A stretch of 64,000 bases of DNA, taken from the NCBI GenBank assembly GCA_031426555.1, contig JANPLN010000025.1, forward strand, positions 32,001 through 96,000. The letters run 5' to 3'. Below, piece by piece: positions 11,020 to 14,302 of the stretch. A program made the translations under genes and the position numbers. Position 1 is the stretch's first letter; each line of letters opens with the position of its first letter. The stretch is from Bdellovibrionales bacterium. Lineage in GTDB: Bacteria > Bdellovibrionota > Bdellovibrionia > Bdellovibrionales > JAGQZY01. The notes below the pieces were generated by a model, which made no database searches, was not told the DNA's origin, and saw only the letters and a program-made list of their open reading frames with translations.

Positions 11020-13139
<2,120 letters not shown>

Positions 13140-13148
13140 GGTTTTAAG

Positions 13149-13177
13149 GTGATAGCTTTAAAGCGATTTTGTGTCTA
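13149..13177 (-). promoter_or_regulatory. Putative sigma70 promoter for the queA operon
   Basis: Minus strand TAGACA-N17-TATCAC, 9 nt before the queA GTG. Confidence 0.4.
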
Positions 13178-13195: not shown

Positions 13196-13233
13196 AAAAA
13201 AAATGGGGACTGGCTCTTCACCTGATCCCCCCC
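13196..13233 (-). terminator. Intrinsic terminator of the candidate sRNA
   Basis: Minus strand GGGGGGGAUC...AGUCCCC followed by A-U8. Confidence 0.6.
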
Positions 13234-13362
13234 AACAAATCGCCGAGCTGTCTAGCCAAGGCTTTTCGCCTTCGCGCCTTAGGCTCGGCCGCGTCCGTGC
13301 AACCCCTGAGATTTCATCCTGAAATTCCCTGCTCTCCATTCCTAGAAAGCGTCTCTACAGAC
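13196..13362 (-). ncRNA. Candidate CsrA/RsmA-sequestering small RNA (CsrB/RsmY/RsmZ-like)
   Basis: Minus-strand hairpins gcuuucu-AGGAAU-ggagagc, auuuc-AGGAU-gaaau and gc-ACGGAC-gc, a single-stranded AGGGA, a long gccgagc/gcucggc stem, then a G/C hairpin followed by U8. Confidence 0.6.
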
Positions 13363-13418
13363 ATTGAATGTACTCGAGCTGGTTAGTTTTTGGGCACAAA
13401 TTGATTTTATAGCTGGTA

Positions 13419-13447
13419 TTGACAATTGTTTGGGAATTCAGTTTACT
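13419..13447 (+). promoter_or_regulatory. Putative sigma70 promoter of tRNA-Leu
   Basis: TTGACA-N17-TTTACT, about 40 nt upstream of the tRNA. Confidence 0.5.
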
Positions 13448-13486
13448 GCGCATCCCTCTAAGTAGTTAGATTGTTAGAGCATTCAT

Positions 13487-13571
13487 GCGCGGATGGTGGA
13501 ATTGGTAGACACGTACGTTTGAGGGGCGTAAGCCGAAAGGTGTGGGGGTTCGAGTCCCCCTCCGCGCACCA
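13487..13571 (+). tRNA. tRNA-Leu(GAG)
   Basis: Acceptor stem GCGCGGA/TCCGCGC, D-loop GGAATTGGTAGAC, anticodon loop TT-GAG-GG, long variable arm, GGTTCGAGTCC T-arm, encoded CCA. Confidence 0.97.
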
Positions 13572-13631
13572 AAACAATTCTGTACAGATTTCACCTTGGC
13601 TCTCCCGACTGATTTTGGTAGCCTCAAATGC

Positions 13632-14009
13632 ATGTCCCACGAATTCGACCTTTCCCCCCTGCAAAAAGCTTTGGCAAGTCTCGAAGAGATCTTGCAGCAG
13701 CCCAAAAATAAATTCATTGTTGCCGGAACAGTGCAAAACTTCGAGTTCACTTTTGAACTAAGTTGGAAGGCAATGCAGAGATTTTTAAAACTTCGCGGGG
13801 TCGAAACTGGAAGCCCAGCGCAAGTGCTTCGCTCTGCTTTTCAAGAAAAATTAATTTCTGATCTTGATCTTTGGATGGATTTTCTAAAAAAAAGAAATCT
13901 CACTGTTCACACTTACAATCAAAATGTGGCCGAAGAGGTCTTTCAAGCGGCCCTCATTTTTCCTCTGTCCGTTAAAACCTTAATCACAAAGCTATCCGTT
14001 AGACCATGA
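13632..14009 (+). CDS. HEPN RNase toxin / HI0074-family nucleotidyltransferase substrate-binding protein (HepT-like)
   Basis: QNFEFTFELSWK and the RX4HXY motif RNLTVHTY; start placed at MSHEF. Confidence 0.85.
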   Translation: MSHEFDLSPLQKALASLEEILQQPKNKFIVAGTVQNFEFTFELSWKAMQRFLKLRGVETGSPAQVLRSAFQEKLISDLDLWMDFLKKRNLTVHTYNQNVAEEVFQAALIFPLSVKTLITKLSVRP

Positions 14010-14302
14010 AATTAACATCGCAAGAAAAAGAATTTCTGATCTCCAATCTCAGACTTCATTTCTCTAAAAACATGTACGTGCTTCTGCTCTTTGGGTCGTA
14101 TGCCACCGAAACGGCAAAACCCACTTCGGATATCGACATTGCCATTAAAGGAACGGGGCCACTCGATGCAGCAAAATGGCAAAGGGCCTTGAGTTTTTTC
14201 GAAGACTCCACGTTTGCAAAAAAAGTGGATCTGATCGATTTTCATCGCGTCTCCGCTGAATTTCAAAAAATTATTCTGCAAAATGCGAAAGCTTTGGATT
14301 AG
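14006..14302 (+). CDS. Minimal nucleotidyltransferase antitoxin (MntA-like)
   Basis: GSX10DXD motif (FGSYATETAKPTSDIDI) and KVDL; ATGA overlap with the HEPN gene. Confidence 0.88.
   Translation: MKLTSQEKEFLISNLRLHFSKNMYVLLLFGSYATETAKPTSDIDIAIKGTGPLDAAKWQRALSFFEDSTFAKKVDLIDFHRVSAEFQKIILQNAKALD

Follow-up and report, generated by a model that had tools for sequence, protein, structure and literature searches.

Between a tRNA-Leu gene and queA, the genome of a Bdellovibrionales bacterium carries a 347-nt gap whose minus strand contains short GGA-loop hairpins and a terminator, and the question raised by this locus is whether the gap encodes a stand-alone small RNA (sRNA) and whether such an RNA could act as a decoy for CsrA. 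The stretch that we analyzed, hereafter the window, is 64,000 nucleotides long (C25:32001-96000 of a 3.14-Mb, 72-contig genome, G000), and coordinates given without a contig refer to it. An original prediction, made from the sequence of the window, had proposed a Csr/Rsm-type sponge RNA at this site. We find that the gap very probably holds a real and independent structured sRNA gene of a new family.

Architecture and loop conservation of the RNA

Read on the minus strand, the RNA opens with an 8-bp hairpin, H1 (13331-13350, loop GGAA), followed by H2 (13308-13329, loop AGGAU at 13320-13316), a single-stranded AGGGG linker (13303-13307) and H3 (13289-13302, hexaloop ACGGAC at 13298-13293), and all three of the GGA-loop hairpins originally described are in the sequence. 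The loops of H2 and H3 are predicted CsrA sites 1 and 2, respectively, and their GGAs (13319-13317 and 13296-13294) lie 23 nt apart. The terminator part (13196-13240) consists of the linker AUUUGUU, a G-rich hairpin (13230-13205) and a U8 run (13203-13196), as had been proposed; a simple promoter and terminator scan did not list this terminator and found no sigma-70 promoter. The predicted RNA is ~157 nt long here and ~113 nt in relatives that lack an insertion described below. The 176-nt region folds at −64.8 kcal/mol, with z = −2.4 against dinucleotide shuffles.

Alignment of relatives and a search for covariation had been suggested as a check on this structure. We aligned seven homologues to a covariance model, R1, which was built from six sequences with its structure set by hand. 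All four helices (H1, H2, H3 and the terminator) covary: 94.3% of their cells are paired and 17 of 29 pairs are altered on both sides, figures that are weakened by the sample of seven sequences, five of them from one genus, and by an alignment fitted to the model's own structure. None of 500 column shuffles equals the alignment on any of five measures, and only 31-60% of cells remain paired when the partners are displaced by 1-3 columns. The register of H3 is partly misaligned in two genomes, G004 and G010, which lowers its pairing to 85%, and the terminator has 98% of cells paired and 4 of 9 pairs altered on both sides. These tallies omit G001, which a contig end cuts short and whose 101 nt are the same as in G003, as well as L015 and L016, which lie on the same contigs as G002 and G003.

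The stem of H1 is conserved, with 6 of 8 pairs altered on both sides, but its loop is not: GGAA is present in three genomes and CGAA, AUGAUG or UUCG in three others, and G010 has no H1. The H2 loop contains GGAU in nine of nine copies on six different stems. These copies come from the seven genomes plus two extra in G002, where the H2 module is triplicated in tandem, and the loop takes the form AGGAU in the home genus (g1), ACGGAU in G009 and AUGGAU in G010. GGA is likewise kept in the H3 loop of six of the seven genomes, again on differing stems (ACGGAC or ACGGAA in g1, AAGGAA in G004, AGGAUA in G010), and is lost in G009 (AAGAU). Several of the H2 and H3 copies are exact ANGGAX hexaloops. 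Because H1 is part of the same RNA and has kept its stem but not its loop, it serves as an internal control for the conservation of the other two loops, and the contrast is the one expected from a loop-reading protein. This comparison indicates that selection maintains the loops of both H2 and H3. The repeated GGA loops that had been taken as the signature of the RNA are therefore conserved over changing stems in H2 and H3, but not in H1. Between the hairpins, the C(A/U)GGGG linker is found in seven of seven genomes, and both it and the motif at the start of the terminator, GUUG(G)GGGGGGAU, are kept in three genera.

In this RNA, three A(N)GGAX loops sit directly on stems. Mononucleotide shuffles average 0.12 such loops, and just 1 of 1000 has as many as three. 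The seven homologues carry 3, 3, 3, 2, 5, 2 and 1 such sites against ~0.1 in shuffles, and at most 2 of 1000 shuffles match the observed count in six of the seven RNAs. The raw GGA count of the RNA is not enriched (6 vs 4.5 expected; 276 of 1000 shuffles reach 6), and the locus is no outlier in a loose genome-wide count of GGA-loop hairpins, where more than 3000 scan windows equal it and the top ones are mostly coding. A strict scan of crude intergenic DNA over the 3.14 Mb returned 136 A(N)GGAN sites on stems of at least 4 bp. Only 10 pairs of these sites are spaced 12-45 nt apart, and the sRNA locus is among the 10.

Other parts of the original description had to be revised. The supposedly unpaired AGGGA is largely paired, its GGGA forming the 5′ strand of the lower H2 stem, which covaries. 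The long gccgagc/gcucggc stem does exist, but it is a 46-nt palindromic insertion (13288-13243) that sits between H3 and the terminator and lies outside the conserved RNA. We consider it strain-specific, because it is absent from all six other homologues and has a second copy, 90% identical over 41 nt, elsewhere in the genome (G000:C2:131366-131405, L009). The insertion alone folds at −26.3 kcal/mol, and five look-alikes (L008, L011-L014) occur in G031, a genome of another family. It also carries the sole Rfam match in the window at E ≤ 10, a weak and insignificant hit to int-alpA (13.8 bits, E 3.2). Finally, the segment had been described as free of open reading frames (ORFs), and a 54-aa ATG ORF is in fact listed at 13339-13175. 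This ORF has no Pfam match and is truncated, frame-shifted or start-less in relatives; therefore, we rejected a small protein and judge that the ORF is not a gene.

Promoter and distribution of the RNA

The minus-strand sequence upstream of H1 contains a series of conserved motifs. The element ATAAAATCA (13402-13410), which is invariant in g1 and in genera g6 and g5, may be an UP element or an activator site. Closer to the RNA are GTGCC, 7 nt and TAACCA (13380-13397), with TAACCA (13385-13380) as the putative −35 element, and GTCTGTAG (13355-13362), a putative −10 element with a GTC core. The GTGCC and TAACCA motifs and their 7-nt spacing are kept in three genera and the bases between them vary; the 17-nt spacing from TAACCA to GTCTGTAG (16 nt in G004) also has a variable sequence. 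These upstream motifs belong to the sRNA and not to the tRNA promoter, because they are kept in G009, which has no adjacent tRNA-Leu. The AAC...GTC layout resembles promoters of extracytoplasmic function (ECF) sigma factors, and by its letters the arrangement of TAACCA, 17 nt and GTCTGTAG looks ECF-sigma-like. We rejected sigma-54 and sigma-70 readings of the block, because the spacing is not constant across genera or the hexamers lack their invariant positions. The TACATT −10 element of the original prediction (13372-13367) does not survive this comparison, since it falls within the variable promoter spacer and is absent in G010 and G009. A genome search with TAACC-N17-19-GTCT gave 13 strict matches, none of them convincingly in front of a sigma-factor gene, and revealed no recognizable regulon.

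It had also been suggested that the RNA times the switch between attack and growth phases. This idea finds no support in the promoter: the FliA-type attack-phase motif, given as TTAAG-N16-CCGATA in excerpts of PMC3627812, does not occur in the conserved upstream block as we read its sequence. What the locus does have, at the level of sequence, are a putative promoter of its own, a terminator of its own and compensatory changes in a conserved structure, the features by which an independent sRNA gene is recognized. The proposal of a stand-alone RNA is thus upheld by a structured, terminator-ended gene that belongs to no Rfam family at gathering score.

The tRNA-Leu/queA gap is conserved in four of five other species of g1. 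In G010, which belongs to a different genus, the tRNA-Leu is followed by a near-identical upstream block, a ~110-nt body, the terminator, the promoter and queA. R1 detected the seventh homologue outside its training set, in G009 of a third genus (63 bits, E 2e-17), where the RNA lies directly upstream of queA. The RNA is therefore present in three of the six genera searched of its Bdellovibrionales family, always just upstream of queA, and strong R1 matches among 26 family genomes (its own included) are confined to g1, g5 (1 of 2) and g6 (1 of 1). Among 384 genomes of the order, the exact upstream block occurs only in g1 (4 of 5, plus the genome itself) and g6 (1 of 1), and a metagenome scan with the promoter block added one locus only, L104, from another variant of the home genus.

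R1 gave no further strong match over 151 genomes of the order, where four of five weak matches were inspected, and four weak matches at the family level (E 0.004-0.04) look like chance. Altogether, we inspected 13 weak matches (E 1e-6 to 0.04), and those not otherwise named here also look like chance. Three were rejected as something else: L121 is the 3′ end of a gene plus a terminator, and L123 and L124 are an mRNA leader.

CsrA as candidate partner and the competing explanations

The genome encodes a canonical CsrA of 79 aa (PF02599, 90.1 bits, G000:C1:44917-45075), whose closest solved relatives are the B. subtilis and Geobacillus proteins. Residues L4 and R44, which excerpts of PMC7652899 state to be important, are present in the alignment. 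A look-up of csrA and fliW had been proposed for this genome, and both genes are encoded there, next to each other. According to excerpts of Duss et al. (2014, PMC4005645), the high-affinity RsmE/CsrA site is an ANGGAX hexaloop placed directly on a stem, loops without the N still bind but more weakly, and ACGGAU is the hcnA loop that was solved with RsmE; the H2 loop of G009 is identical to the hcnA loop. H2 also resembles RUACARGGAUGU, the consensus obtained by SELEX, which excerpts of PMC7652899 associate with loops of mostly 6 nt and stems of at most 4 contiguous pairs. The same excerpts report that a single transcript can have two of its sites occupied by one CsrA dimer. As for the wider group, part of a 2026 paper (PMC13443453) describes repression of a hag reporter by the CsrA of B. 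bacteriovorus and notes how little is known about the control of this protein, and excerpts of PMC3627812 describe APsRNA1, an attack-phase sRNA of unknown function.

Together, these comparisons suggest that binding of CsrA would be the best explanation of the conserved loops, a judgment in which confidence and doubt are about equal. That a stand-alone sRNA acts as a small CsrA decoy, by the mechanism given here, falls slightly below that balance. Transcription would proceed from the ECF-sigma-like promoter and start just before H1, at ~13354-13348. A CsrA dimer would then bridge the H2 and H3 loops across their 23-nt interval, possibly also engaging the CAGGGG linker, and the bound CsrA would be withheld from its targets, such as flagellin and other leaders that combine a GGA hairpin with a Shine-Dalgarno sequence. 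Duplication of a module, as in G002, would raise the capacity of the RNA. By withholding CsrA, the RNA would add a signal-dependent input to the FliW-CsrA partner switch.

Such an RNA would work like a minimal Rsm/Csr or McaS-type CsrA binder and would not be a member of those families. With RsmZ, RsmY and RsmX of Pseudomonas and CsrB and CsrC of enterobacteria (clan CL00106), it shares A(N)GGAX motifs in short hairpin loops, a G-rich linker motif, a Rho-independent terminator, a species-variable number of hairpin modules and a genome that encodes CsrA. Unlike those sponges, it is not placed in the Csr/Rsm clan by sequence or covariance model, has an ECF-like promoter and no GacA/UvrY box, and its Bdellovibrionales host possesses FliW as well. 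Small size and few GGA sites are also features of the E. coli RNAs McaS and GadY, and for this reason the capacity of our RNA would be roughly one CsrA dimer per molecule. McaS is reported to bind CsrA through two sites. The RNA has no sequence relation to McaS or GadY and, in contrast to them, shows no sign of a base-pairing function or Hfq dependence; excerpts of PMC7652899 describe both as base-pairing sRNAs that have been proposed to antagonize CsrA. In the FliW-CsrA-flagellin switch of B. subtilis and C. jejuni, where the flaA leader titrates CsrA, the resemblance lies in the csrA-fliW pair within a flagellar cluster and in GGA hairpins in some flagellin leaders, whereas the sites described here are on a dedicated non-coding RNA that is unlinked to flagellar genes.

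Several observations weigh against a CsrA decoy. The fliW gene lies directly downstream of csrA in the flagellar cluster, so a protein antagonist of CsrA already exists. According to excerpts of a review (PMC7652899), the occurrence of fliW is anti-correlated with that of BarA-UvrY, the system by which Csr sRNAs are driven, and FliW-carrying bacteria are described there and in part of PMC4894983 as using a protein antagonist instead. In the window, no Csr/Rsm model is matched at gathering score or at E ≤ 10. In the loci of five relatives, tRNAs aside, Rfam gives one match at E ≤ 1, that of the CsrB model to the three-module homologue in G002; it counts in favor of the decoy, but its 20.9 bits (E 0.018) are far below the gathering score of 71. 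The same search addressed the concern that the RNA might belong to an unrelated family, and it returned nothing at gathering score. Conserved, loop-exposed A(N)GGA motifs are present, but there are just two of them compared with 5-22 in known sponges; in G009, one GGA loop is left, and the overall number of GGAs there shows no enrichment. The palindrome upstream of GacA/UvrY-controlled genes is TGTAAG-N6-CTTACA, and matches with at most three mismatches number 17 in the window against 20 expected by chance, with none within 13363-13500.

The distribution of the RNA and its expression record count against the decoy as well. No match to the gap was found in G005, a genome of the same genus with 97% completeness, and at the family level R1 matched 0 of 13 g4 genomes at E < 1e-3, 0 of 3 g3 genomes and 0 of 1 g2 genome. 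Because it is absent from most of its family, the RNA cannot be the general control of CsrA in this group. Four RNA-labelled runs hold contigs only, mostly over the tRNA. A 189-nt contig from a transcriptomic run covers 13313-13491 at a depth of 2.4, and a 2133-nt contig of a relative, from a metatranscriptome, spans the whole locus; such contigs give neither ends nor strand and are possibly derived from DNA, and thus are no proof of a discrete transcript.

The same RNA could instead be a trans-acting base-pairing sRNA that is made from an ECF-type promoter and has nothing to do with CsrA, with the sigma-E-dependent MicA and RybB as the model. Its G-rich stretches (the GGAU loops, CAGGGG and GUUGGGGGGGAU) would then pair with pyrimidine-rich target mRNAs. 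We regard this as rather unlikely. The upstream motifs with their fixed 17-nt variable spacer do resemble ECF promoters, the most conserved segments of the RNA are short G-rich tracts and the genus of G009 manages with one GGA loop, but the conserved nucleotides lie in small hairpin loops with the form of CsrA sites rather than in one extended single-stranded seed, and tandem duplication of H2 fits protein titration better than a seed. Stretches of 10 nt or more that perfectly complement the linker or the terminator 5′ arm were only scattered over the genome and, on inspection, not concentrated at gene starts, in a search that was crude, with no gene annotation and no energy model, and is uninformative. 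A little less probable again is that the GGA loops are read by another factor, either a different protein that binds RNA or DNA or, if the loops mimic a Shine-Dalgarno sequence, the 30S subunit; the RNA would then be grouped with the genome's other GGA-hairpin elements. Together, H2 and CAGGGG have the look of a translation-initiation region, and the genome holds at least eight twin-A(N)GGAU-hairpin repeats and a flgI-flgJ spacer RNA with three GGA loops. Against mimicry, the AGGAU loop does not complement CCUCC, the core of the anti-Shine-Dalgarno sequence, and no candidate alternative protein was identified; to our knowledge, CsrA alone is documented for ANGGAX hexaloops on short stems, as far as excerpts of PMC4005645 and PMC7652899 go.

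The position of the RNA directly upstream of queA in three genera, with tgt and yajC following on the same strand, raises one more alternative, in which it acts in cis as leader or attenuator for the queA-tgt-yajC operon and controls read-through into queA, for example by sensing a queuosine precursor. The conserved block CCCAAAAACUAA even faintly recalls the A-rich tail of preQ1-I aptamers. We nevertheless consider a queA leader highly improbable, as a conserved promoter separates queA from the terminator in every genome, no alternative pairing that would form an antiterminator is evident, and the element is absent from the queA loci of B. bacteriovorus and at least 10 other Bdellovibrionales (L017-L034). 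Neither preQ1 nor any other riboswitch model gives a match in the window (E ≤ 10) or in five relatives (E ≤ 1). A riboswitch leader would be marked by such a match and by a terminator that governs queA.

If the RNA is a CsrA decoy, then CsrA of predatory Bdellovibrio-like bacteria could be under two kinds of antagonist, with FliW reporting on flagellar assembly and unrelated sRNAs on other signals; those sRNAs would be the ECF-sigma-driven, queA-adjacent RNA, the flgI-flgJ spacer RNA and possibly the twin-hairpin repeats. We regard this combined arrangement as doubtful, though conceivable. CsrA RNA decoys are documented in Gammaproteobacteria, and our literature search found no report of a Csr-type sRNA in Bdellovibrionota, a lineage that is thought to control CsrA only through FliW. 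A decoy here would mean that such RNAs arose independently outside Gammaproteobacteria and without GacS/GacA, and hence that the decoy principle has more than one evolutionary origin and is compatible with FliW. A small RNA with two mutable loops also makes a clean test object. Even if CsrA is not its partner, the locus represents a family of structured RNAs that is so far uncatalogued, is supported by covariation and has a conserved promoter of an unusual kind.

Other GGA hairpins and the gene neighborhood

GGA-loop hairpins occur elsewhere in this genome and in its relatives. At least two of five flagellin leaders examined have one upstream of the Shine-Dalgarno sequence. The flgI-flgJ spacer (L105:2575-2787; G000:C1:40853-41065), which lies in the same flagellar cluster as csrA and fliW, comprises ~210 nt with three GGA-loop hairpins and a terminator-like end. 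It resembles the queA-adjacent RNA in these two features, but it occupies a different locus and has no R1 match. A repeat family with at least eight copies in G000, all outside the window, has a conserved core in which 27 nt separate two A(N)GGAU hairpins. This core caps a long stem, the arms of which differ between copies yet stay complementary, and conserved outer inverted repeats flank it. The copies are at C15:240046(+), C24:65766(−), C24:8165(−), C25:128330(+), C25:127999(−), C37:7116(−), C65:32415(−) and C65:1315(−). Possible readings of the copies are structured RNAs of one family, a MITE-like element or a set of units that bind CsrA, and it is conceivable that the queA-adjacent RNA, the spacer RNA and the repeats make up a multi-RNA CsrA network.

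In L123 (1501-1580) and L124, from two genomes of a Bdellovibrio-group genus (G059 and G060), the sequence matched by R1 is the 5′ leader of a gene for a secreted trypsin-like protease. In this leader, a near-copy of H2 with the loop AGGAU precedes AGAGGGG and a GUG start, the classic arrangement of CsrA-repressed leaders, which makes the protease mRNA a candidate for CsrA repression and, like the flagellin leaders, speaks for the decoy; H2 plus the CAGGGG linker mimics this layout of hairpin plus Shine-Dalgarno sequence. The homologue of the L123 protease in G000 is without an H2-like leader. Another weak match, L122:1501-1617 (−) (G125:C1:2316473-2316589; R1 29 bits, E 8e-6), is intergenic and comes from another family. 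This unrelated-looking GGA/G-rich RNA candidate has GGA hairpins and a G-rich terminator and could be a distant analogue or a chance match. L117 (G000:C72:21365-21524, −) and L118 (G003:C24:2172-2303) are weak matches common to two species, each with an AAAUUU/AAAUUU hairpin bearing an AAGGAAG loop beside a second G/C hairpin. At the queA loci L018, L020 and L021 (~1150-1400), from Pseudobdellovibrio and 'Bdellovibrio sp.' metagenome-assembled genomes (MAGs), a different cluster of GGA-loop hairpins (with loops such as AAGGAC, UAGGAUG and AGGA) lies upstream of a small ORF that precedes queA.

The host had been described as Bdellovibrio-like, in agreement with its identity as a Bdellovibrionales MAG, and the closest named relatives of its QueA are from Bdellovibrionales MAGs (96% and 88% identity). 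The queA gene (PF02547) runs on the minus strand from a GTG start at 13139 to 12120 and is followed on that strand by tgt and yajC. The separate promoter-like element that had been noted after the sRNA terminator is indeed present on the minus strand as TAGACA, 17 nt and TATCAC (13177-13149), between the terminator and the GTG. It is kept in g1 and G010, and G009 keeps TATCAC with TTGCAT at −35. The TATCAC ends just 9 nt 5′ of the GTG and no Shine-Dalgarno sequence is visible (13139-13154, minus strand); for this reason, the queA mRNA may be leaderless or almost so.

The divergent tRNA-Leu(GAG) gene (13487-13571, plus strand) has a likely promoter of its own, read from the sequence as TTGACA (13419-13424), 17 nt and TTTACT (13442-13447) and kept in G010 as TTGACT, 17 nt and TTAACT. 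Directly 3′ of the tRNA, two small plus-strand ORFs (13542-14302) match the Pfam families NTase_sub_bind (HEPN-like) and Polbeta/NTP_transf_2 (nucleotidyltransferase), and the pair looks like a HEPN/MNT-type toxin-antitoxin module at a tRNA-flanked site. The true start of the first ORF probably lies further downstream, because the listed start at 13542 overlaps the tRNA.

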